Shown: positions 21,711 to 30,397, numbered from the stretch's first letter. The stretch is 64,000 bases of DNA from Thermoplasmatales archaeon SW_10_69_26 (GCA_003009755.1 PXUB01000025.1:14205-78204), one strand, 5' to 3'. The notes: generated by a model not told the origin, from the letters alone. Numbers and translations: made by a program.

Positions 21711-22631
21711 ATGGGGTTGAGCGCGCTTCTCATCTCGCAAGGGACGTGGACCTTCGCCGCCATCGTCATCGGGTTCGTCGCCCTGCTCTTCGTCGCCTCG
21801 GCGATCAAGATCGTCAAGGAGTACGAGCGGGGCGTGATCTTCCGGCTGGGTCGGCTGATCGGAGCCAAGGGTCCCGGCCTGTTCTTCATCATCCCGATCT
21901 TGGACAAGATGGTCAAGGTCGACCTCCGCGTGATCACGCACGACGTGCCGATCCAGGAGGTCATGACCGTCGACAACGTCCCGGTCTCGGTGAACGCGGT
22001 CGTCTACTACCGCGTCATGGAGCCCGAGGACGCCACCGTCGAGGTCGAGGACTACCGGATGGCGACGAGCCAGATCGCGCAGACCACGCTGCGCAGCGTC
22101 GTCGGCAAATCCCAGCTCGACGAGTTGCTCGCCGAGCGCGAGAAGATCAACGAGGAGCTGCAGGAGGTCATCGACGACGCCACCGACCCGTGGGGCATCA
22201 AGGTCTCCGCCGTCGAGATCAAGGACGTCGAGCTCCCGCAGGACATGCGTCGCGCCATGGCCGCCCAAGCCGAGGCCGAGCGCGAGCGCCGCGCCCGCGT
22301 GATCTCCGCCGAGGGCGAACAGCAGGCCGCCGAGCGGCTCAAGGAGGCCTCGCAGACGATGGCCGAGGGCAAGGGTTCGCTGTACCTGCGCACGCTGCAG
22401 ACGATCCAGGAGACCGCCAGCGAGCAGGGCACCAACACGGTGATCCCGCTCCCGATCGAGTTCCTGAAGGCGCTGAACCCCAACGACGGCGGCAGCCTGC
22501 CGCTGATGGGGTCCGGTGGGGGCGACGACGACGGGGAAGACGATGACGGGGGAACCGAGCCCCTCGAGGACATCGTTGACGACGACACCGGCGCCGAGGA
22601 GCTCGTCGAAGAGGAGAACGCGGGGACCTGA
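21711..22631 (+). CDS. Stomatin/SPFH (slipin) family protein
   Basis: EYERGVIFRLGR, GPGLFFIIP, AQTTLRSVVG, AEAERERRA. Confidence 0.95.
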   Translation: MGLSALLISQGTWTFAAIVIGFVALLFVASAIKIVKEYERGVIFRLGRLIGAKGPGLFFIIPILDKMVKVDLRVITHDVPIQEVMTVDNVPVSVNAVVYYRVMEPEDATVEVEDYRMATSQIAQTTLRSVVGKSQLDELLAEREKINEELQEVIDDATDPWGIKVSAVEIKDVELPQDMRRAMAAQAEAERERRARVISAEGEQQAAERLKEASQTMAEGKGSLYLRTLQTIQETASEQGTNTVIPLPIEFLKALNPNDGGSLPLMGSGGGDDDGEDDDGGTEPLEDIVDDDTGAEELVEEENAGT

Positions 22632-22705
22632 CCCCGCTCACGATAGCATCGGCCGAGGACGCGTGGGCGCCCCCGGCCTCGGGCGGCCACCGTCCCGGTC
22701 GACGG

Positions 22706-22944
22706 TCAGGGACCGAAGGGTCCGGGGGCATTGGGCCCCTGGTCCTCCGTCGGGGCGATCAGATCCAGCTGGTCGGGGTTGAAGGCGCGGTCGCCTCCCT
22801 CCCCCACAGCTCGACCAGCACGCGGTTGTCCCGGTCGAAGTCGAGCACGAGACCCTGCTCGTCCCACAGGGTCTCGTCGACCTCCGGGTTCGGGCGCACG
22901 CGGACGGCATCTCCGACGCTGAGACGCACGTGTATCTCACCCAC
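22706..22944 (-). CDS. Small SH3/KOW-like protein, apparent 1-nt indel in a G run
   Basis: LSVGDAVRV...GLVLDFD...VLVEL; adding one G at 22801-22805 gives WGEGGDRAFNPDQLDLI, a typical SH3-barrel ending. Confidence 0.5.
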
Positions 22945-23031
22945 AGATGTCTTGCATGGCCAACCCTGATGAAGGCTCGCTGGCCCGTCACATCGACGAC
23001 GTTCAGATGCGGGTCCGTTTGTGGGCCGTTC

Positions 23032-24231
23032 TCAGGCGCTTTCGCCGCCCATGCGGGCGTCCGCGTGGGCGAGCGCGACGTCCGCGGCCTGATACAGCAG
23101 GTGCAGATCGGGCTCGGGTCGGGCGCGGGCGTAGTCGGCGAACTCGCCGCGCAGCGCCAACAGGTCCGCGTGGCCCTCCTCGACCGTGTCGGGATCGGCC
23201 CCAGGGCCCAGGTGGCGAGCGATCGTGGCCCGCAGGCGTTCGATCTTGACGGCGGCGAAGCCAGGCGGCATCGGGTTGTCGACGAGCGGCACGAGCTCGG
23301 GCTCGCCGCCCTCGCCGGGGGGGCCCTGGAAGCCGCCGGCTTCGAGGCCGCGGATCGCGTTCTCGAGGTGGGCGAGCTCGGGCGCCTCGTGGAGGGGCGT
23401 GGCCAGCGGTTCGCCGCAGGCGGCCACACCTTCGACGTCGAAGAGGCCGCGGCCGTCGCCGCGGAGGCCGTCGAGGAACCGGCGGGGCAGCGCCTCGCCC
23501 TCCTCGGTCTCCGCTTCGCGCCAGGCCAGCCGGGAGAGGTCGCCGACGGGCAGCTCGGCACGCAGAGCCAACGCCAGACCGGAGGGCGGCGGCGGATCGG
23601 GATCGTCGCCGGTGGGCCACAGGTAGCCGGCACCGCCACCGGCGAGCACGGTCGTCTCGGCGCGGTGCGTGGTGCACTCCTCGCCGTCGACGAGCACGGC
23701 CCCGGAGACGCCCTCCTCGGCGTCGCCGATCAAGCGCACGGCGACGGTCGTCTGGTCCACGGCGGCGCCCTCGCGCTGCAAGCGATCGAGGATCGCCTCG
23801 CGCAGGTTGCGGGCCCAGGCTTCGTCGTTGGGGACGTCCAGCTCCTCGAGCCACCGTCGGACGCGACGGGCGCGGAAGCCGAACACCTGGGCCTCCTCGG
23901 GGGCGGGAACCTCGCTGCGCTTGATGAGCTCGCGGGCCTGGGGCACCGGGTCCTCGGGGATCGGCGGGACGTCGGGGACGTCCTGGGCGCCCTGGACGAG
24001 CAGGCGGGTGCGGGCGCCCGATCGCACGGCGGCGAGGGCGGCGGCTGCGCCGGCCAGGTCGCCACCGACGACGAGCACGGACCGGTCGCGGGGACGGTCG
24101 GCGTCGGTCTCCTCGTCCGAGCCGAGGGTCATGCCGCCCAGCATGCCGCCGGGGCCTTCGCGGTCGCCGACGATGGCGCCGACGGCGTCCCCAGACGAGG
24201 ACGGCGACGGGTGTTGATCGGGGTCCGCCAT
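23032..24231 (-). CDS. Degenerate L-aspartate oxidase (NadB)-like protein, probable pseudoenzyme
   Basis: VLVVGGDLAG, TVLAGGGAG, GLALALRA, DVEGVAACGE, PLH and a C-terminal helical domain are colinear with NadB; catalytic motifs and capping domain missing; 4 nt downstream of nadA. Confidence 0.75.
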   Translation of the reverse strand: MADPDQHPSPSSSGDAVGAIVGDREGPGGMLGGMTLGSDEETDADRPRDRSVLVVGGDLAGAAAALAAVRSGARTRLLVQGAQDVPDVPPIPEDPVPQARELIKRSEVPAPEEAQVFGFRARRVRRWLEELDVPNDEAWARNLREAILDRLQREGAAVDQTTVAVRLIGDAEEGVSGAVLVDGEECTTHRAETTVLAGGGAGYLWPTGDDPDPPPPSGLALALRAELPVGDLSRLAWREAETEEGEALPRRFLDGLRGDGRGLFDVEGVAACGEPLATPLHEAPELAHLENAIRGLEAGGFQGPPGEGGEPELVPLVDNPMPPGFAAVKIERLRATIARHLGPGADPDTVEEGHADLLALRGEFADYARARPEPDLHLLYQAADVALAHADARMGGESA

Positions 24232-24235
24232 GCGA

Positions 24236-25363
24236 TCACGACCCGATCTCGAGCATGCGGTCCAGCGCGACGCGGGACCACTCGCGGTCCTCCTCGTCGA
24301 CGCGGACGCGGTTGATCACGTTGCCCTTGACCAGCTCCTCGAGCACCCAGGTCACGTAGTTGGGGTCGATCTGGCGCATCGCGTTGCAATCCAGGCAGGC
24401 GTCGCCGCACAGCTGGATGACCTGCTTGGCCTCGGGCGTGTTGCGCTGCAGGTGCTCGATGAGGTGCTTCTCGGTGCCGATCGCGATCGTGGTGTCATCC
24501 TCGGCCTCGTGCACGAAGTCGATGATCTGGCCCGTCGAACCGGCGAAGTCGGCGGCGTCGACGACCTCGCGCGGGCACTCGGGGTGGACGATGATCTCGC
24601 CGTCCGGGTAGCGCTCGCGCATGCCGGCCACGTGCTCGAGGGAGAACCGGTCGTGGACCTGGCACATGCCATCCCACAGGATGAAGCGGGCGTCCTCGAC
24701 GGCCTCCCGAGAGGTGCCGCCGAACTCGGGGTGCCAGGGGTTCCACTTCACCCAGTCCTCGTCGCGGAAGCCCAGGTCGTAGGCGGTGTTGTGGCCGAGG
24801 TGCTTGTCCGGCATGAACAGGATCTTGCGCCCGGAGTCCAGCGCCCACTCGAAGATCTCGTCGGCGCTCGAGCTCGTGCAGATCGCCCCGTCCATCCGGC
24901 CGGTGAAGGCCTTGAGGTCGGCGTAGCTGTTCATGTAGGTGACGGGCACGATCTCGTCGGGGTCGAGCACCTGGGTGAGGTCGTCCCAGGCTTGGCGAAC
25001 CTGCACCATCTCGGCCATGCCGGCCATCGGGCAGGCGGCCTCGCGGCTCGGGATGATGACGTTGCGTTCGCCGCCGGTAAGGATGTCGGCCGTCTCGGCC
25101 ATGAACGTGACGCCGCAGAAGACGATGTTCTCGACCTCGGCGTCACGGGCGCGCTTGGAGAGGGAGAAGGAATCACCCGTGAAGTCCGCCAGCTCGTAGA
25201 TCTCCTCGTGCTGGTAGTTGTGCCCCAAGATGAGGGTCGAGTCGCCCAGGCAATCGCGGGCGCGCTCGATGCGCTCGGCTCGTTCCCCCGGGCCCAGATC
25301 CCGGTAGGGTTCCGGTAGCTGGGCGAAGTGGGCGTACCGGAACAGGTTCAGCGTCTCGGCCAT
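24236..25363 (-). CDS. nadA: Quinolinate synthase
   Basis: ILGHNYQ, FCGVTFMAE, ACPMA, YMNS, CTSS, PDKHLG, CQVH, HPEC, CNAM (three cluster Cys). Confidence 0.95.
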   Translation of the reverse strand: MAETLNLFRYAHFAQLPEPYRDLGPGERAERIERARDCLGDSTLILGHNYQHEEIYELADFTGDSFSLSKRARDAEVENIVFCGVTFMAETADILTGGERNVIIPSREAACPMAGMAEMVQVRQAWDDLTQVLDPDEIVPVTYMNSYADLKAFTGRMDGAICTSSSADEIFEWALDSGRKILFMPDKHLGHNTAYDLGFRDEDWVKWNPWHPEFGGTSREAVEDARFILWDGMCQVHDRFSLEHVAGMRERYPDGEIIVHPECPREVVDAADFAGSTGQIIDFVHEAEDDTTIAIGTEKHLIEHLQRNTPEAKQVIQLCGDACLDCNAMRQIDPNYVTWVLEELVKGNVINRVRVDEEDREWSRVALDRMLEIGS

Positions 25364-25437
25364 CGCATGGAGCCAGCCGACCGGAGCCTAAAGGCGTTGG
25401 GTTGGGGGAAATCCGTTCGCCCTCGGGAGCGCTGGCT

Positions 25438-25492
25438 CGAAGAATTTTCGCTCGCGCCCGCGACCACGAAGCTGCCTGCGGTGGCAAGCTTC
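25438..25492. promoter_or_regulatory. Candidate operator sites in the nadA/sod divergent promoter region
   Basis: Imperfect palindrome CGAAGAATTTTCG (25438-25450) and inverted repeat GAAGCTGCC...GGCAAGCTTC (25468-25492). Confidence 0.3.
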
Positions 25493-25550
25493 CCCACCCC
25501 GAGCGAACATCTATAACGTCTGTTGCCTTGCCCTATACGAGGCGGTCGAC

Positions 25551-26153
25551 ATGACTGACTACACGCTGGACGAGCTTCCCTACGACTACGACGCGCTGGA
25601 GCCCCACATCAGCGAGCAGGTGCTCAAGTGGCACCACGACCGACACCACCAGGGCTACGTTGACGGGTGGAACAGCGCCGAGGAGACGCTCGAGGAGAAC
25701 CGCGAGTCCGGCGACTTCTCTTCGAGCGGGTCCGCCCTCCGCAACGTGACCCACAACGGGTGCGGTCACATCCTGCACGCGCTGTTCTGGCACAACATGA
25801 GCCCCACCGGCGGCGACGAGCCCACCGGCGCGATCGCCGACCGCATCGAGGCGGACTTCGGCAGCTACGAGGCCTGGGAAGGTGAGTTCCGCGCCGCAGC
25901 CAGCGAGGCCTCCGGCTGGGCGCTCCTCGTCTACGACAGCTTCTCCAACCAGCTCCGCAACGTGGTCGTCGACAAGCACGACCAAGGCGCGCTCTGGGGC
26001 TCGCACCCGATCCTCGCCTTGGACGTGTGGGAGCACTCCTACTACCACGACTACGGCCCCGACCGCGGCGACTTCGTCGACGCGTTCTTCAACGTCGTCG
26101 ACTGGGAGGAGCCCCGCTCGCGGTACAAGCAGGCCGTCTCCCTGTTCGAGTAA
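25551..26153 (+). CDS. sod: Fe/Mn superoxide dismutase
   Basis: LPYDYDALEPHIS, WHHDRHH, HILHALFW, DVWEHSYY. Confidence 0.97.
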   Translation: MTDYTLDELPYDYDALEPHISEQVLKWHHDRHHQGYVDGWNSAEETLEENRESGDFSSSGSALRNVTHNGCGHILHALFWHNMSPTGGDEPTGAIADRIEADFGSYEAWEGEFRAAASEASGWALLVYDSFSNQLRNVVVDKHDQGALWGSHPILALDVWEHSYYHDYGPDRGDFVDAFFNVVDWEEPRSRYKQAVSLFE

Positions 26154-26170
26154 GCGCATCCCGCGCTCTT

Positions 26171-26214
26171 GGCCTCCCCGCGAGGAGAGGCCCGCTTTCC
26201 TCTTCTTCTCTTCC
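26171..26214 (+). terminator. Putative sod terminator
   Basis: GGCCTC...GAGGCC hairpin followed by CTTTCCTCTTCTTCTCTTCC. Confidence 0.55.
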
Positions 26215-26240
26215 GCCCGCCAGCGACGCCGCCACCCAGC

Positions 26241-27263
26241 TTAGCCGCGCTCGCCGGCGTTGAGCCCGGCGCGCTCGGCGACGTCGTACACCTCGGTGCG
26301 GGCATCGCGCAGCGAGGCGCGCTTGACGACGTAGCCCAGCTCGGTCAGCTTGCCGAGGCTCGATCGCACGGTGCGGGACGTGAGCCCGGACTGGCGAGCG
26401 ATCTCGGAGGGCGTCATCGGGCCCTCGTACTCCAACAGCTTGTAGATGAACCGGGCCGAGGGCGGGGCATCGGCCAGCTCGCTGCCGATCTCGCGTTTCA
26501 GCCGGACGCGGCCGAGCAGGTGGCCGTGCTCGCGCTCGGACAACCGCACCAGCGTCAGCCGGCGGCCGGTGCCCTTGATCGTGACGTCCTCGTCGATCGA
26601 GACCCGGCGGTGACCGTCGACGACGAGCTCGACGCCGGAGCCGCTCTCGGGGTTGGCCAGCGTGATCATGGAGGCGCTGGGCGACACGATCGGGGGATGG
26701 TCCTCCTCGCTGCAGACGGGCACGACGGTCAACACGTCGGCGGCGGACAGGACCGCGGGTCCGCCGGCAGACAACGCGTAGGCGGTCGACCCGGTCGGGG
26801 TGCACACGATCGTGCCGTCGCCGCGGTCGTGCCACAGCAGCTCGCCGTCGACCTTGACGTCGACGTCGAGGAACGTGCCGTTCTGCTGGGGCAACACGGC
26901 GGCCTCGTTGAGCGCCAGCCAGCGCTCGTCGCCGACCTCGCACTCCATGCGCAGCGTCTGCGTGCGCCCCGATCGACCCTCGGCCAGGGCTCGGGCGACC
27001 TCCTCGGCCTCGCCGGCCTGGGCCTCGGCGAGCACGCCCAGGCCCTCGTTGGACAAGAGCAGGACCGGCGGCGGGTCGGGCAGCTCGGCCAACCGCGACA
27101 GGAAGAATCGGGTCTCGCCGACGAGCGTCAGCACGTCGGTCTCGGCGTCGACGGCATCGGTGACGGTCAGCTCGTGCTCGGCGAACGCCTCCCGCACCTG
27201 GCCGCCGTCCTCGCGGGCTCGCTCGTGGGCCTCGACCGCGACGCGCACGTTCCCCGGGCACAT
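26241..27263 (-). CDS. NAD kinase-like domain fused to C-terminal winged-helix HTH
   Basis: ALNEA and GDGTIVCTPTGSTAYALSAGGP retained; GGDG replaced by VGETR; C-terminal PPSARFIYKLLEYEGPMTPSEIARQSGLTSRTVRSSLGKL wHTH. Confidence 0.85.
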   Translation of the reverse strand: MCPGNVRVAVEAHERAREDGGQVREAFAEHELTVTDAVDAETDVLTLVGETRFFLSRLAELPDPPPVLLLSNEGLGVLAEAQAGEAEEVARALAEGRSGRTQTLRMECEVGDERWLALNEAAVLPQQNGTFLDVDVKVDGELLWHDRGDGTIVCTPTGSTAYALSAGGPAVLSAADVLTVVPVCSEEDHPPIVSPSASMITLANPESGSGVELVVDGHRRVSIDEDVTIKGTGRRLTLVRLSEREHGHLLGRVRLKREIGSELADAPPSARFIYKLLEYEGPMTPSEIARQSGLTSRTVRSSLGKLTELGYVVKRASLRDARTEVYDVAERAGLNAGERG

Positions 27264-27329
27264 CGTCGGCCCCCTTGAGGCCTGCGCCCGCGGGCGAACG
27301 GTCAAGCCGCCGAAGCCGCGTGAGCCCAC

Positions 27330-28184
27330 ATGGTCGGACGTTGGAAGCTGCTCGGCTGGGCCGGAGCCGGCCTGCTGACGTTGGTCGTGCTAGCGCCCGC
27401 CGGGATGCTGTGGATGCTGTTGCATCCGCCCCAGGCCGGCGGCACGACGACGCCGGTCGAGCTGGGGCTGGCGGCCGAGCATCGGCGGTTGACGACCGAG
27501 GACGGTGTCGAGCTGGATGCCTGGGTCGTCGAGGCCGCCAACGAGACCGACTCGGCGATCGTGGTCGCCCACGGCTACCCGGCCAGCAAGGCCGACGTGC
27601 TGCCGGCGGTGGCCTTCCTTGCAGGAGACCATCACCTCGTGCTGGTCGACCACCGCGGGTTGGGTGACAGCGAGGGCTCGACGACGCTGGGCATCGAGGA
27701 ACCGTTGGACGTGCAGGCCGGCATCGAGGCGGCGCGCGCGATCGCGGGCGTCGACCGCGTCGGGTTGCTCGGGTTCTCGATGGGTGGCGCCGCGGCGATC
27801 CAGGCGGCCGACGACGCCGACGTGGACGCGCTCGTGGCGCAAGCCGCCTACGCGGACCTGGGCGATCTTGCGGCCGGTAGCTTCGAGGGCCTGGGCCCGC
27901 TGGCCCACCCGATGGGTGCCCTGATGCTGTTCTACGGCGAGCTGGCCGGCCTCGACCCCGACCGCGCCCGCCCCGTGGAGGACATCGGGGACGTCGAGGC
28001 GCCGATCTTGTTGATCCACGGCAGCGAGGACGAGACGATCGACGCCGACCACGGCCGTCGGCTGGCCGAGGCCGCCCCCGAGGCCGAGCTGTGGATCGTC
28101 GACGGCGGCACGCACGGCGCCGCCGCGTTGAACCCCGGGTGGGGGGACCGCGTGGGCGCGTTCTTCGACGACGCGCTCGAGTGA
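27330..28184 (+). CDS. Membrane-anchored alpha/beta hydrolase
   Basis: HGY, DHRGLGDS, GFSMGG nucleophile, IHGSEDET, GTHG. Confidence 0.9.
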   Translation: MVGRWKLLGWAGAGLLTLVVLAPAGMLWMLLHPPQAGGTTTPVELGLAAEHRRLTTEDGVELDAWVVEAANETDSAIVVAHGYPASKADVLPAVAFLAGDHHLVLVDHRGLGDSEGSTTLGIEEPLDVQAGIEAARAIAGVDRVGLLGFSMGGAAAIQAADDADVDALVAQAAYADLGDLAAGSFEGLGPLAHPMGALMLFYGELAGLDPDRARPVEDIGDVEAPILLIHGSEDETIDADHGRRLAEAAPEAELWIVDGGTHGAAALNPGWGDRVGAFFDDALE

Positions 28185-28447
28185 GAGGGGCAAGCAGGGG
28201 ACGGCAGAGGCAGCGGGACACAGCAGAGGCTCTGTCCCCCCGTTCCTCGTCGTTCTCCGCCTCGTGCGTTTCGGCCTCCGATCCCCTGCATGCTTCCCGC
28301 CGTCCAACCTTCCCGCGATGGCGTTGCCTCCCCCTCTCCGTTCCTCGAGCCTCCGTCCCGCTGTGGTCGAGGTCGCCGCTTGGCTGTCCTCCCCCCCGGC
28401 CCTCCCCTCGTCCTCTCCTTCTTGTATGAGGAGCGGATGCCCGGGTG

Positions 28448-30397
28448 ATGCCCGTCAGCTTCGAGGCCCGCGCACGAGAGGGCCTGTCCCGTCGGGGGAC
28501 GATGGAGACCCCGCACGGGCCCGTGGACACGCCGGCGATGATGCCGGTGATCAACCCCAACCGCACGCTGATCGAGCCCCAGCGGATGGCCGAGGACTTC
28601 GGCGCTCAGATCCTCATCACGAACGCCTACATCATCCGCAAGGACGAGGACCTGCGCGAGCAAGCCCGCGAGGAGGGCGTGCACGCCCTGATCGATTGGG
28701 ACCGGCCCCTGGTGACGGATTCGGGCACCTTCCAGGACTACGTTTACGGCGAGATCGACCTCGAGCCCGACGAGATCCTCGCCTTCCAGCGCGAGATGGG
28801 CTCGGACGTCGGCACGATCCTCGACGTCTTCAGCCCGCCGGACCGCACGCACGAGGAGGCCGACCAGGAGGCCGACGACACGCTGTTGCGCGCCGTGGAC
28901 GCGGTCGACCACGCCGGCGACATGGCGCTCAACCTGCCCGTGCAGGGCGGCACCTACCCCGACCTGCGCGAGGCGGCCGCCCGCGACGTCTCCCGCCTCG
29001 AACCGCCCGGTGGTGCCCTGCACCCGATCGGTGGCGTCGTCCCCCTCATGGAGGACCAGCGCTACGTCACGCTCACGAAGGCGATCTTGGGCGCCCAGCG
29101 CGGCCTGCACGCCGGCCGCCCGGTGCACCTGTTCGGCGCCGGCCACCCGCACATGCTGGCCCTGGCGGTCTACCTCGGGTGCGATCTGTTCGACTCGGCC
29201 GCCTACGCCAAGTACGCCGACGACGACCGGCTCGTGTTCCCCTGGGGCACCGTCGGGCTCGACGAGCTCGACGAGCTGCCCTGCACGTGCCCCACCTGCC
29301 GCGAGCGCACCGCCGGGGACCTCGAGGCCTTGCCCGACGACGAGCGCGTGCAGGCGCTGGGCGAGCACAACCTGCACGTCACGATGGCCGAGATGCGCCG
29401 CATCCGGCACGCCCAGGACAGCGGCCGCCTGCTCGAGCTGGTGCTCGAGCGCATCAGCGCGCATCCGGCCTTGGACGCCTGCCGGCACGTGCTGGCCGAC
29501 CACGTCGACCAGCTGGAGGCTCGCGAGCCGGTCTCCCACCACCGCGCGGTGACCCTCGTCGACCACGGCCTCGACTGGCATCCCCAGCCCGAGCGGGCGA
29601 TGGACCGGGTCGACCGCCGGCTGGACCCCCGCGGCCCCCTCACGCTGCTGGATGCGGTCGACCGTCCGTTCACGGCGAACGCCACCGACGAGGTGCAGGC
29701 GATGCGCGCCCGCGGCGTGCACCCGTTCTTCCCGTCCCGGCTGGGCCCGGTGCCCTTCGACCTCGACGAAGCCTACCCGTTCTCCCAGTGCCGGGAGGGA
29801 CCGATCACGGAGCCGGTCGTCGAGGCCAGCCGCGAGCAGCTCGACCAACTGGCCGAGGCGTGGGACGTCGACGTCCTCGCACCTGAGACGGCCCGCCAGC
29901 GGCCGGCGGAGGACGAGGTGGATCTGACGGCCGAGCGCGTGGCCGCGACCGCCAGCTACCAGTTCGGGCCCCAGGCCGGCCGACGCCTGCTGGCGGGCGA
30001 GGTCGCGATCGAGACCTCCCCGCGCACGGGGCGTGTGCGGACCGTGGAGACCGACGGCGAGCACGTGCTCTCGCGCCGCGCCTACGACGGCCTGTTCACG
30101 CTCAAGCTCGCCGGCGCTCGCCGCATCCACGAGTGGTTGCCGCGCCCGTTCATGCGCGTCCGCGTCGACGAGGAGTCGGCCCCGTTCAACGCGGCCGGCA
30201 AATCGGTGTTCGCCAAGTTCGTGCTCGGCGTTCAAAAGGGCCTGCGCCCCGGCGAGGAGTGCCTGGTGGTGGACCCCGACGACGAGCTCGTGGGCTGCGG
30301 GCAGCTGCGGGTCAGCCCGGCCGAGATGAAGGACATGGGCAGCGGGCCGGCCGTCGACGTGCGGGAGGGCATCGGCAAGGACACCTACCGGGGCTGA
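28448..30397 (+). CDS. tgtA: Archaeosine tRNA-guanine(15) transglycosylase
   Basis: TPAMMPV, TDSGTFQ, PVQGG, HLFGAGHP, DLFDSAAY, CTCPTC...HN zinc site, C-terminal PUA. Confidence 0.95.
   Translation: MPVSFEARAREGLSRRGTMETPHGPVDTPAMMPVINPNRTLIEPQRMAEDFGAQILITNAYIIRKDEDLREQAREEGVHALIDWDRPLVTDSGTFQDYVYGEIDLEPDEILAFQREMGSDVGTILDVFSPPDRTHEEADQEADDTLLRAVDAVDHAGDMALNLPVQGGTYPDLREAAARDVSRLEPPGGALHPIGGVVPLMEDQRYVTLTKAILGAQRGLHAGRPVHLFGAGHPHMLALAVYLGCDLFDSAAYAKYADDDRLVFPWGTVGLDELDELPCTCPTCRERTAGDLEALPDDERVQALGEHNLHVTMAEMRRIRHAQDSGRLLELVLERISAHPALDACRHVLADHVDQLEAREPVSHHRAVTLVDHGLDWHPQPERAMDRVDRRLDPRGPLTLLDAVDRPFTANATDEVQAMRARGVHPFFPSRLGPVPFDLDEAYPFSQCREGPITEPVVEASREQLDQLAEAWDVDVLAPETARQRPAEDEVDLTAERVAATASYQFGPQAGRRLLAGEVAIETSPRTGRVRTVETDGEHVLSRRAYDGLFTLKLAGARRIHEWLPRPFMRVRVDEESAPFNAAGKSVFAKFVLGVQKGLRPGEECLVVDPDDELVGCGQLRVSPAEMKDMGSGPAVDVREGIGKDTYRG

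Follow-up and report, generated by a model that had tools for sequence, protein, structure and literature searches.

A candidate NAD kinase-fold, winged-helix regulator and a degenerate NadB homologue at the nadA locus of a Thermoplasmatota-type archaeon

Gene content of the nadA locus

The window, a 64,000-nt stretch of DNA from Thermoplasmatales archaeon SW_10_69_26, contains four neighbouring genes that a first-pass annotation had proposed as an NAD-control module, and all four were found as it had described them (Table 1): an intact, full-length nadA (TIGR00550 cut-off 262.9 bits); a NadB homologue, here termed NadB*, whose ATG lies 4 nt past the nadA stop on the same strand; a divergent sod, separated from nadA by a 187-bp spacer; and an NAD kinase (NADK)-like protein fused to a winged helix-turn-helix (wHTH) domain. 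The fusion had been placed two genes from nadA; it does lie close by, but with a single gene (sod) in between. Its start, MCPGN, coincides with the position at which the first-pass annotation ended (27263), giving a protein of 340 aa. For the 61-aa ORF that follows NadB*, tblastn gave matches (49–58% identity) immediately behind NadB* in each of the five family relatives (L010–L014), and the profile scans gave no family above cut-off. In an alignment of NadA (A4), seven cysteines are invariant over 15 class sequences, among them C111, C234 and C326, which, by their motifs, would be the Fe-S ligands.

Table 1 Features of the nadA locus, with positions counted from the first letter of the window
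Feature	Position	Strand	Details and basis
61-aa ORF, possible third operon gene	22759–22944	-	tblastn matches in family relatives
NadB* (NadB-like ORF)	23032–24231	-	399 aa; FAD-type domain and C-terminal helical domain
nadA (quinolinate synthase, intact)	24236–25363	-	375 aa; PF02445 315.3 bits, TIGR00550 304.8 bits
TATA-like CTTTAGG, inferred nadA promoter	25387–25393	-	sequence read and conservation
Candidate operator, 13-bp imperfect palindrome cGAAAATTCTTCg (cGAAA-ATT-CTTCg)	25438–25450		sequence read
sod (Mn/Fe superoxide dismutase, haloarchaeal type)	25551–26153	+	NF041312 377.8 bits
NADK-like and winged-helix fusion	26241–27263	-	340 aa; NAD_kinase_C, HTH_24 and MarR_2

The sod product exceeds the NF041312 cut-off of 300 bits and also matches PF00081 (111.6 bits) and PF02777 (101.9 bits). 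The cluster of NadA is oxygen-sensitive, and the position of sod had been read as a link to oxidative stress, under which a functional sod would be co-regulated with nadA as part of a full oxidative-stress module. Besides the established sensitivity of the NadA cluster, such a module could draw on the candidate operator, which lies in the shared spacer and precedes both start codons, that of nadA by 87 bp and that of sod by about 100 bp. However, sod adjoins nadA at one of the 17 class nadA loci, and the proposed link is therefore not supported. This sod is also a second copy in the genome and is patchily distributed, with an orthologue (83% identity) in one relative only, G001, where it lies on a different contig from nadA, and three family relatives have the fusion gene immediately upstream of nadA. 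A module that includes sod is very improbable, and the gene appears to be a neighbour by chance rather than a conserved part of the locus.

The NADK-like winged-helix fusion and the palindrome upstream of nadA

The fusion matches NAD_kinase_C (PF20143) at 78.4 bits (cut-off 23.7; 80.5 bits in the genome scan) and, in its wHTH part, HTH_24 (29.4 bits against 21.9) and MarR_2 (28.7 against 27). Its Pfam scan gave NAD_kinase_C and HTH families only, with Nudix, 3H/NiaR, NMN adenylyltransferase and RNam kinase absent. The AF2 model (pLDDT 86.9) comprises a two-domain NADK fold and a wHTH with helices at 268–280, 285–292 and 296–309 and strands at 312–316 and 324–328, and the best Foldseek matches are the NAD kinases 7mh7, 2i2f, 1suw and 1u0r (TMq 0.62–0.66).

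In canonical NAD kinases, the Asp of the GGDG motif is the catalytic centre, while the NE/D motif and the region-II Thr/Tyr recognise NAD, as described in PMC9763689. The corresponding region of the fusion reads V48-G49-E50-T51-R52, in agreement with the annotated loss of GGDG, and the catalytic Asp column is occupied by Thr both in an alignment of 26 fusions with five canonical NADKs (A1) and in a wider alignment of fusions. N119, E120 and T155–Y162 (TPTGSTAY) are kept; in A1, N119, T155-P-T-G-S159 and Y162 are invariant, and the GGDG block is degenerate in 26/26 fusions. In a phylogenetic tree, all 74 fusion NADK domains fall on one side of a branch from 44 canonical, mostly bacterial, NADKs (support 99.8). 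A genome search for a canonical NAD kinase recovered two further NADK-type genes with intact GGDG, on contigs C3 and C30, and each of five distant fusion-bearing genomes likewise encodes 2–3 NADK_C homologues.

The fusion could alternatively be a bifunctional enzyme-regulator comparable to RbkR, NadR or BirA, which would phosphorylate NAD and bind DNA with its substrate or product as effector. There is a precedent in RbkR, an archaeal kinase-wHTH protein that retains activity (PMC5397151). Outside the class, an Asp occupies the catalytic position (GxD[R/S/K]) in 38 of 57 fusions and GGDG is intact in 1/57, so bifunctionality may be a trait of the whole fusion family, and in the window protein some residual catalysis might come from Glu50, the neighbour of the lost Asp. 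Against this, the catalytic column holds Thr, Ser or Asn at 9/9 loci of the class, the fourth Gly of GGDG is gone in 54/57 fusions, the N-terminal NADK model PF01513 does not recognise the N-domain of the fusion yet matches the C3 and C30 paralogues, and these two GGDG-bearing genes meet the enzymatic need. Bifunctionality of the window protein is therefore unlikely. The first-pass suggestion of a dead-kinase sensor-regulator gains support from the kept NAD-recognition motifs and the two intact paralogues, together with the nadA linkage and the palindrome set out below: the 340-aa fusion is likely kinase-dead and is a candidate for the transcription factor through which the nadA operon responds to NAD(P).

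Across the class, the fusion was detected in 14 of 21 genomes, all 14 among the 17 with this type of nadA, and in 0/4 of those without it; it lies within 1.2 kb of nadA in ten of the 14. When the wHTH part alone served as query, 80 loci were obtained, 60 of them with NADK-like fusions. At 17 of these 60 there is a nadA within 3.5 kb (ten of them outside the class, in Nitrososphaeria and in Baldr-, Thor- and Brockarchaeota-type lineages), and at 43 no nadA was found within that distance; the Thorarchaeota locus L036 is one more fusion-nadA linkage outside the class. The survey of gene neighbourhoods proposed earlier thus uncovered conserved fusion-nadA linkage both in relatives and in several archaeal phyla. 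The fusion was not found in two family genomes, G001 (88% complete) and G004 (75% complete), which nevertheless keep nadA-NadB*, suggesting that the regulator is dispensable.

The pattern GG[A/C]A[A/G]-N3-[C/T]T[G/T]CC describes a palindrome found upstream of nadA in 14 of the 17 class genomes; its outermost bases deviate in three f1 genomes, the present one among them, and it is missing upstream of nadA in G001 and G004. The core of the window's own site, GAAAWTYCTTC, has no second occurrence in the 2.8-Mb genome besides that listed in Table 1. The AT-spacer form is present at nadA in five class genomes and nowhere else in four of them; in the fifth, G011, there are two further AT-rich-spacer matches. 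Palindromes were also found in nadA/fusion spacers of other phyla. Over 81 loci (529,445 bases), the cross-phylum consensus GGCAANNNTTGCC was matched 30 times with at most one mismatch, and no fewer than 17 matches fall in spacers beside a fusion, nadA or NiaP-like MFS transporter gene; at L149 and L150, for example, a perfect site precedes a PcaK/BenK-type MFS transporter gene adjoining the fusion gene. The window palindrome differs from GGCAANNNTTGCC at five of the ten specified positions and is tied to it only via intermediates, such as GGAAA-N3-TTGCC in G008 and G010. The TATA-like CTTTAGG, which would represent the nadA promoter and possibly give rise to a leaderless transcript, lies 24–30 nt before the nadA ATG, in a block (AACCCAACGC-TTTAGG/ATATAGG/TTTAAA) conserved in the five family relatives.

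The palindrome may be bound by another factor, or may be no operator at all, in which case the wHTH of the fusion would have some other function and the fusion-nadA linkage would reflect a shared metabolic theme only. The TATA-like box follows about 54 bp downstream of the centre of the palindrome, a placement other than the classical one for an archaeal repressor, and both this genome and haloarchaea encode short proteins that consist of a wHTH alone, with the helix type of the fusion. In contrast, site and fusion are found together in five lineages, and neither was found in the same two family genomes, G001 and G004. Moreover, the site abuts the TATA-like box or start of the fusion gene itself in G012, L036, L169 and L178, as expected for autoregulation; in G012 it occupies the divergent 123-bp spacer that separates the fusion gene from nadC(-nadA-nadB). 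Both alternatives are quite improbable, and the fusion is the putative ligand of the palindrome.

The degenerate NadB homologue and the supply of iminoaspartate

NadB* scores 27.8 bits against the NadB model TIGR00551 (cut-off 452.75), and its description as a catalytically stripped homologue holds. When it is aligned with a full-length NadB of the same class, a gap takes the place of the capping domain, and all six active-site residues listed for E. coli NadB (His244, Thr259, Arg290, His351, Glu121 and Ser389; PMC10249383) are gone: when mapped via a 1chu alignment, the first four fall in gaps, Glu121 is replaced by Val and Ser389 by His. Arg386 of NadB is also replaced. The FAD dinucleotide-binding signature consists of GxGxxG and an acidic residue after strand 2; in NadB* the motif is broken (G56-G-D58-L-A-G61, with Asp for the second Gly) and the acidic residue ending strand 2 is Gln (...LLVQ). 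Neither change is seen in the mini NadB forms of sister families.

NadB* is under purifying selection, with dN/dS of 0.12–0.48 (15 pairs from six genomes) against 0.16–0.34 for NadA (ten pairs). A NadB-derived ORF lies no more than 3 kb from nadA in 15 of the 17 class genomes, the remaining two loci ending at contig edges, and in G012 a full-length NadB takes the position of NadB*. Iminoaspartate itself is likely supplied by NadX (aspartate dehydrogenase), which the genome search for a canonical nadB or nadX located on another contig, beside nadC. Of 41 related genomes, 34 encode NadX; it is absent from the three that have full-length NadB (G012, G025 and G026).

The annotated role of NadB*, that of a partner to NadA without catalysis of its own, is supported in part, by the loss of catalytic parts, the purifying selection, the adjacency to nadA and a complex model that passes its controls, with binding a prediction. 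The proposed complex modelling of NadA with NadB* gave a score of 0.81 (runs 0.80, 0.81 and 0.88), compared with 0.09 for the best of three controls, with at least 75% of contacts agreeing between runs and a partner pLDDT of at least 88. Of 80 solved complexes, 58 reach the mark set for such models, as do 2 of 110 mismatched pairs, counts that hold only roughly here because the model was built on small, unpaired alignments. The predicted interface on NadB* comprises residues 315–332, 354–370 and 384–391, within the C-terminal domain, which is the most conserved part of the protein, and it takes in 9 of the 13 columns of this domain that do not vary between NadB*, full NadB and the mini forms. 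The C-terminal domain of NadB* thus probably still clamps onto NadA.

Alternatively, NadB* could be a decaying relic or an enzyme of new activity rather than a partner of NadA. Its FAD-type domain retains a complete fold (Z about 31 to NadB and SdhA): the AF2 model (pLDDT 86.9) aligns with E. coli NadB (1knp, VIA-align) over 341 residues, spanning model residues 50–399, with Z 31.6 and rmsd 3.2 Å, and reaches a Foldseek TMq of 0.66. The sister-family mini forms, with their intact GxGxxG, may bind flavin, and association with NadA is a prediction of the complex model. However, the dN/dS values argue against decay, the loss of the six listed catalytic residues and the broken dinucleotide motif of this family speak against an enzyme, and the most conserved domain is the very one predicted to contact NadA. 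Either fate is rather unlikely, and a non-catalytic subunit of NadA remains the preferred role for NadB*.

Proposed model and relation to known systems

Taken jointly, an NADK-fold regulator of the nadA operon, NadB* as a NadA-docking pseudoenzyme and an incidental sod form a model that we hold with moderate confidence. The archaeon, of Thermoplasmatota type and high GC, would have the core of its de novo NAD synthesis at this locus, under regulation. The sensor of the fusion would be an NAD kinase fold that kept its NAD-recognition residues and lost its catalytic Asp; with NAD(P) as the putative effector, the protein would dimerise, use its winged helix to bind the 13-bp palindrome that precedes nadA, and set transcription of nadA-NadB*, and possibly of the 61-aa ORF, by NAD(P) level, through either repression or activation. 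NadB* would be the remnant of an ancestral L-aspartate oxidase, unable to oxidise aspartate, that was left after NadX took over iminoaspartate supply. Its retention would be due to continued docking of its C-terminal helical domain on the NadA face with C111, C234 and C326. In such a physical complex, as suggested by the structural model, NadB* would act as a non-catalytic subunit that either passes on an intermediate or shields the NadA site. The sod gene would be an accessory second copy that came to lie between nadA and the gene of the regulator in no other genome than this.

Parts of this arrangement have counterparts in known systems, and our literature search found no description of an NADK-fold/winged-helix regulator of this kind. 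NrtR, also found by comparative genomics, similarly turns an NAD-related enzyme fold into an effector domain joined to a winged helix and controls NAD synthesis genes, but it is bacterial, senses through a Nudix domain and has another domain order, whereas the present fusion has an NAD kinase fold without Nudix (PMC2330246). NiaR (YrxA) acts on nadABC-type operons via a palindromic operator and, in some lineages, on a PcaK/BenK-type MFS transporter, but it senses niacin, and its protein family and effector domain are unrelated to the fusion (PMC2330245). RbkR joins a cofactor-pathway kinase to a wHTH in several archaeal phyla and regulates biosynthesis and uptake genes, and often itself, through operators that vary by lineage; it differs in its kinase fold and pathway and in its retained kinase activity, while the class of the fusion has lost the catalytic Asp (PMC5397151). 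With canonical NAD kinases (PpnK/NadK; 1suw, 1u0r, 2i2f and 7mh7) the fusion shares the two-domain fold, the NE motif and the TPTGSTAY and SAGGP blocks, but its GGDG is broken, PF01513 does not match, a C-terminal wHTH has been added and it forms a separate clade. Similarly, NadB* resembles NadB (1chu, 1knp and 5kxj) in its FAD-type domain and C-terminal bundle (Z 30–32 over about 340 residues) and in following nadA directly, but has no capping domain, has its catalytic residues deleted or replaced and carries a broken GxGxxG.

More broadly, NADK-derived winged-helix proteins may be master NAD regulators across Archaea and the NadB C-terminal domain a NadA-docking module, a generalisation we advance tentatively and with some doubt. 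If it is true, such regulators would range over Thermoplasmatota, Thermoproteota including Nitrososphaeria, Asgard lineages and possibly DPANN, reading NAD(P) through the kinase pocket and acting at a GGCAA-N3-TTGCC operator at nadA, at niaP-like transporter genes and at their own gene. In this lineage the docking domain would then persist on its own, as a flavin-free pseudoenzyme subunit that links iminoaspartate made by NadX to NadA or else shields NadA on its cluster side.

Gene content of the locus and the wider NAD pathway

The genes that the first-pass annotation had placed side by side, nadA, sod and two odd proteins, were read correctly, as ORF calls and family scans agree, and the locus is a real, coherent feature. 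Its G+C content runs from 66 to 75% in the window, and the nearest homologues of the window proteins carry the labels of Thermoplasmatota or Thermoplasmata MAGs. Directly 3' of the NadB-derived gene (NadB*), a 61-aa ORF without a family-scan match above cut-off is conserved in place in each of the five family relatives (genomes of the same family), at 49-58% identity, and is a possible third member of the nadA operon.

Genes of the nadA locus, and forms of the palindrome upstream of nadA in this and related genomes (G numbers)
Feature	Position or genome	Strand	Basis or sequence
61-aa ORF	22759-22944	-	ORF call
NadB-like ORF (NadB*)	23032-24231	-	ORF call and family scan
nadA	24236-25363	-	ORF call; family scan agrees
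sod	25551-26153	+	ORF call; family scan agrees
NADK-like/wHTH ORF, 340 aa from MCPGN start	26241-27263	-	ORF call and family scan
alpha/beta hydrolase	27330-28184	+	ORF call
archaeosine tRNA-guanine transglycosylase-like gene	28445-30397	+	name read from translation alone
palindrome	25438-25450 (this genome)		CGAAAATTCTTCG
palindrome	G011, G013, G016		GGCAATTCTTGCC
palindrome	G006, G019		GGCAAATCTTGCC
palindrome	G018		GGCAAAAATTGCC
palindrome	G008		GGAAAATCTTGCC
palindrome, two inverted copies	G010		GGAAATCCTTGCC
palindrome	G002		GGAAAATTCTTCC
palindrome	G003, G005		TGAAAT[T/C][T/C]CTTCC

A genome search for a canonical nadB or nadX and a canonical NAD kinase, as the first-pass annotation had proposed, yielded no NadB above the TIGR00551 cut-off in this assembly, which is 95% complete. 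The sole other TIGR00551 match, a 629-aa SdhA-type frame on contig C4, was rejected as a canonical NadB (222.8 + 149 bits, below cut-off). An aspartate dehydrogenase (NadX; Asp_DH_C, 90.6 bits versus 27) and nadC lie 1.5 kb apart on contig C15, and two more NADK-type genes with an intact GGDG motif are found on contigs C3 and C30, so this genome can do without either odd protein in its ancestral role. A leader RNA such as a riboswitch was rejected for nadA, since Rfam models run over 22500-27600 at E values up to 1 gave no NAD riboswitch and a single unrelated sub-threshold match (24 bits versus 67.9). A scan of the nadA/sod spacer for bacterial-type promoters and terminators was empty, which says little as it held no archaeal promoter model.

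The proposed link between nadA and oxidative stress through sod is not supported. The window sod, a patchily distributed gene of haloarchaeal type (NF041312), appears to be an accessory gene that was inserted between nadA and the putative regulator gene, since it adjoins nadA in one of 17 loci of the class (the 21-genome set around this genome), namely here, its 83% orthologue occurs in G001 only, on a contig other than that of nadA, and it is the second sod of this genome (C15:39070-39657, 49% identical to the first) that is shared with family relatives, at 47-50% identity. The association with SOD is incidental, and the window sod may be under the influence of the shared spacer.

A winged-helix protein derived from NAD kinase

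The AlphaFold2 model of the NADK-like/wHTH protein (hereafter the fusion; pLDDT 86.9) comprises both NADK domains and a winged helix, joined by a linker of low confidence (245-258), and Foldseek searches with it returned NAD kinases only (TMq 0.62-0.66). Protein and genome searches used 26241-27206 as query (321 aa, without the first 19 residues), and alignments A1 and A2 the full 340-aa fusion. In A1 (26 fusions and five canonical NADKs) the Asn of the NE motif, the TPTGS block and Tyr162 are invariant; GGDG is degenerate in all 26 fusions, and in the window protein the column of its Asp holds Thr51, with Glu50 one position earlier. According to PMC9763689, the GGDG Asp is the catalytic centre of NAD kinase, and NE/D and region-II residues recognise NAD.

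The fusion family is large and archaeal. A search for homologues of near-equal length listed 77 full-length fusions, all metagenomic and annotated as NAD+ kinase, as MarR family regulator or as hypothetical. A locus scan with the whole-fusion alignment was dominated by canonical NAD kinases, via TPTGSTAY (fusions at 2 of 80 loci), and was redone with the wHTH part alone; the 80 loci returned comprised 60 with NADK-like fusions, labelled Thermoplasmatota, Nitrososphaeria, Thermoprotei, Brock-, Baldr-, Thor-, Njord-, Nano- and Parvarchaeota, and 20 with short proteins lacking the NADK part, all haloarchaeal. GGDG is kept in one of 57 complete fusions, and Asp stands at the catalytic position in 38; it is lost in the other 19 (nine of the window's class and 10 DPANN-type records). 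In a quick tree with 44 canonical NADKs, mostly bacterial, the fusion NADK domains form one clade (support 99.8). Two to three NADK_C homologues were found in each of five distant fusion-bearing genomes, which makes the fusion an additional paralogue in those as well.

The haloarchaeal wHTH-only proteins are mostly 86-148 aa long (up to 273 aa) and share the wHTH type of the fusion, PPSAKF..K.LEYEG...LRDAR..VY (loci L144-L147, L151, L154, L161, L162, L165, L172, L173, L180, L182, L188, L191, L195, L196, L201, L202 and L211). A similar small ORF is present in this genome at C20:33408-33626.

A neighbourhood survey of the four genes upheld the fusion-nadA part of the module that had been proposed, and not its sod part. 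Within the class the fusion occurs in 14 genomes and this nadA type in 17; all 14 fusion-bearing genomes have nadA, none of the four nadA-negative genomes has the fusion, and the two genes lie within 1.2 kb of each other in 10 of the 14. Three family relatives share the order fusion-nadA-NadB* on one strand; the first two genes are ~100 bp apart, without sod. In the related genome G012, the fusion is divergent from nadC, the head of a nadC-nadA-nadB operon that is split over two contigs. Beyond the class, nadA is found within 3.5 kb of the fusion at 10 of 51 loci, as well as at the Thorarchaeota locus L036; nine Thermoplasmatota loci of the wHTH-only scan probably belong to genomes already included in the class figures and were counted once. 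At three loci (L149, L150 and L037) the fusion adjoins the gene of an MFS transporter, of the aromatic-acid/H+ family (TIGR00895, 271 and 263 bits), the type to which PMC2330245 assigns the niacin transporter NiaP.

Four genomes of class families f3 and f4 (G007, G009, G015 and G017) have Asp_DH_C (NadX) matches. In these genomes this nadA type was unmatched at E <=1e-30 and the fusion was not found either; they may use a divergent NadA below the search threshold.

A 13-bp palindrome lies upstream of nadA in 14 of the 17 class genomes; in G001 and G004 it was not found there, and nor was the fusion in these genomes. In this genome its relaxed pattern turns up every 6 kb or so, for an expectation of ~0.7 matches in 17 upstream regions of 260 bp, and was observed in 15 of the 17, that of G012 being a chance match inside coding sequence. 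In G012, GGCAAAATTTGCC lies in the 123-bp nadC/fusion spacer, touching a TATA-like box. In this genome ~54 bp separate the palindrome centre from a TATA-like CTTTAGG downstream of it, which stands 24-30 nt before the nadA ATG. With 32 strict and ~440 relaxed sites here, degenerate forms are too common for a regulon reading, and the only clear outcome of the regulon search is the family-specific core, which occurs once in this genome, at nadA. An AT-spacer form is found at nadA in five class genomes and is exclusive to nadA in four of them, with two further AT-rich-spacer matches in G011.

The motif, with GGCAA-N3-TTGCC as consensus, recurs at fusion loci of other phyla, as GGCAATGATTTCC and GGCAACATTTGCC in the 139-bp nadA/fusion spacer of L036, two sites at L169, GGCAAAAATTTCC at L156 and L164, GGCAATA[A/G]TTGCA at L197, L200 and L206, GGCAATAATTGCC at L178, 25 nt ahead of the fusion start, and GGCAAAAATTGCC ahead of the NiaP-like gene of L149 and L150. 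A search of 529 kb allowing one mismatch gave 30 matches, at least 17 of them in spacers of the nadA/fusion/NiaP-like type. In comparative genomics, a joint pattern such as that of palindrome and fusion is what a transcription factor and its operator usually leave, and from it we infer binding. The dead-kinase sensor-regulator of NAD genes envisaged earlier gains from the degenerate GGDG, the kept NAD-recognition residues, the nadA linkage and the conserved palindrome, and, as far as sequence comparison reaches, the fusion is well supported as a putative regulator of NAD synthesis.

Other repeats were noted. At 25523-25532 (-) in the window, flanked by a TATA-like element and the start codon of sod, the direct repeat GGCAAGGCAA equals two cross-phylum half-sites and may be due to chance. 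In two family relatives (L023 and L024), an AT-rich palindrome unlike the nadA site, TTGATAATATCAA (the form in G003), lies ~150 bp upstream of the fusion start and is followed by GATTTAATAAC. On contig C15 of this genome, just upstream of nadX (L033:534-909), a 91-bp unit is repeated four times in tandem (91% matching), and the gene on its far side encodes a membrane protein; within the units, and in the flank to their left, are the words GGAAATTTTC and CGAAAATTTCCG, similar to half of the nadA palindrome.

Reduction of NadB* and its predicted pairing with NadA

The description of NadB* as a catalytically stripped NadB homologue was borne out. In its AlphaFold2 model (pLDDT 86.9; 11-43 disordered), residues 49-399 align to SdhA, FrdA and NadB at Z 30-33, with NadB the most identical (22%). 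The full-length NadB of G012, encoded directly after nadA (TIGR00551, 423.7 bits, full coverage), served as alignment reference, against which NadB* lacks the capping-domain segment. Mapping through this protein to E. coli NadB (1chu) covered the six active-site residues listed in PMC10249383, and all six are deleted (His244, Thr259, Arg290 and His351) or replaced (Glu121 by Val, Ser389 by His); the position of Arg386 (E. coli numbering) holds Glu. The dinucleotide motif here reads G-x-D-x-x-G; relatives have T, S or C in place of the D.

Shorter NadB-derived proteins of sister families (mini forms, 243-282 aa) keep GxGxxG but have no capping domain and an incomplete FAD domain; in G008, G014 and G018 the mini form is flanked by nadA and nadX. 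The reduced group is rare, with 14 proteins at E <=1e-30 among 1.84 billion representatives, 12 of them of at most 349 aa and two full-length NadB-like. Of 41 related genomes, 34 carry NadX and the three with full-length NadB lack it, so that NadB reduction goes with NadX. Judged from its dN/dS of 0.12-0.48 (15 pairs, six genomes), versus 0.16-0.34 for NadA, NadB* is not decaying; strong GC3 bias probably lowers dS for all genes.

A complex of NadA with NadB* was predicted with a score of 0.81 (runs 0.80, 0.81 and 0.88), where three controls reached at most 0.09; the runs share at least 75% of contacts, with partner pLDDT of at least 88. Among solved complexes, 58 of 80 reach the mark applied to such scores, as do 2 of 110 mismatched pairs; these counts are rough here because our own small alignments were used. 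No solved NadA-NadB complex is known to us, which makes it unlikely that the predictor was repeating a structure it had already seen. At the level of a model, the prediction supports binding of NadB* to NadA.

The predicted interface on NadB* lies in the C-terminal helical domain (315-332, 354-370 and 384-391), the part best conserved among NadB*, mini forms and full NadB, and its contact residues include nine of 13 invariant C-terminal columns (D318, P322, G324, F325, R332, G362, E363, R369 and A370). On NadA it would comprise 106-118, 231-239 and 319-331, around the invariant C111, C234 and C326, which from NadA motifs we take to be the cluster ligands. Of the earlier reading of NadB* as a non-catalytic partner of NadA, the loss of catalytic residues stands, and the partnership, now a concrete structural prediction, is plausible.

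Novelty and implications

No NADK-derived DNA-binding protein or archaeal NAD regulon factor appeared in full-text literature searches, whose coverage stops short of subscription journals; the NAD-regulon transcription factors in the literature searched are bacterial (NadR, NiaR and NrtR). In the portion available of a haloarchaeal annotation review, two NAD kinase paralogues are the sole NAD kinase mention, and the available sections of the RbkR paper (PMC5397151) name NadR, BirA and PutA as enzyme-regulator fusions, with 'NAD kinase' absent. A NAD regulator of the fusion type thus appears to be undescribed so far.

If this reading is true, the fusion family would represent a NAD regulon with a defined operator for Archaea and another case of an enzyme fold turned sensor, and its natural 'kinase-dead' and 'kinase-like' variants would lend themselves to study of the enzyme-to-sensor transition. 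NadB* also makes testable the old question of whether and how NadB meets NadA to pass on the unstable iminoaspartate, for which the complex model points to D318, P322, F325, R332, E363 and R369 of NadB* and to the NadA patch around the three invariant Cys.
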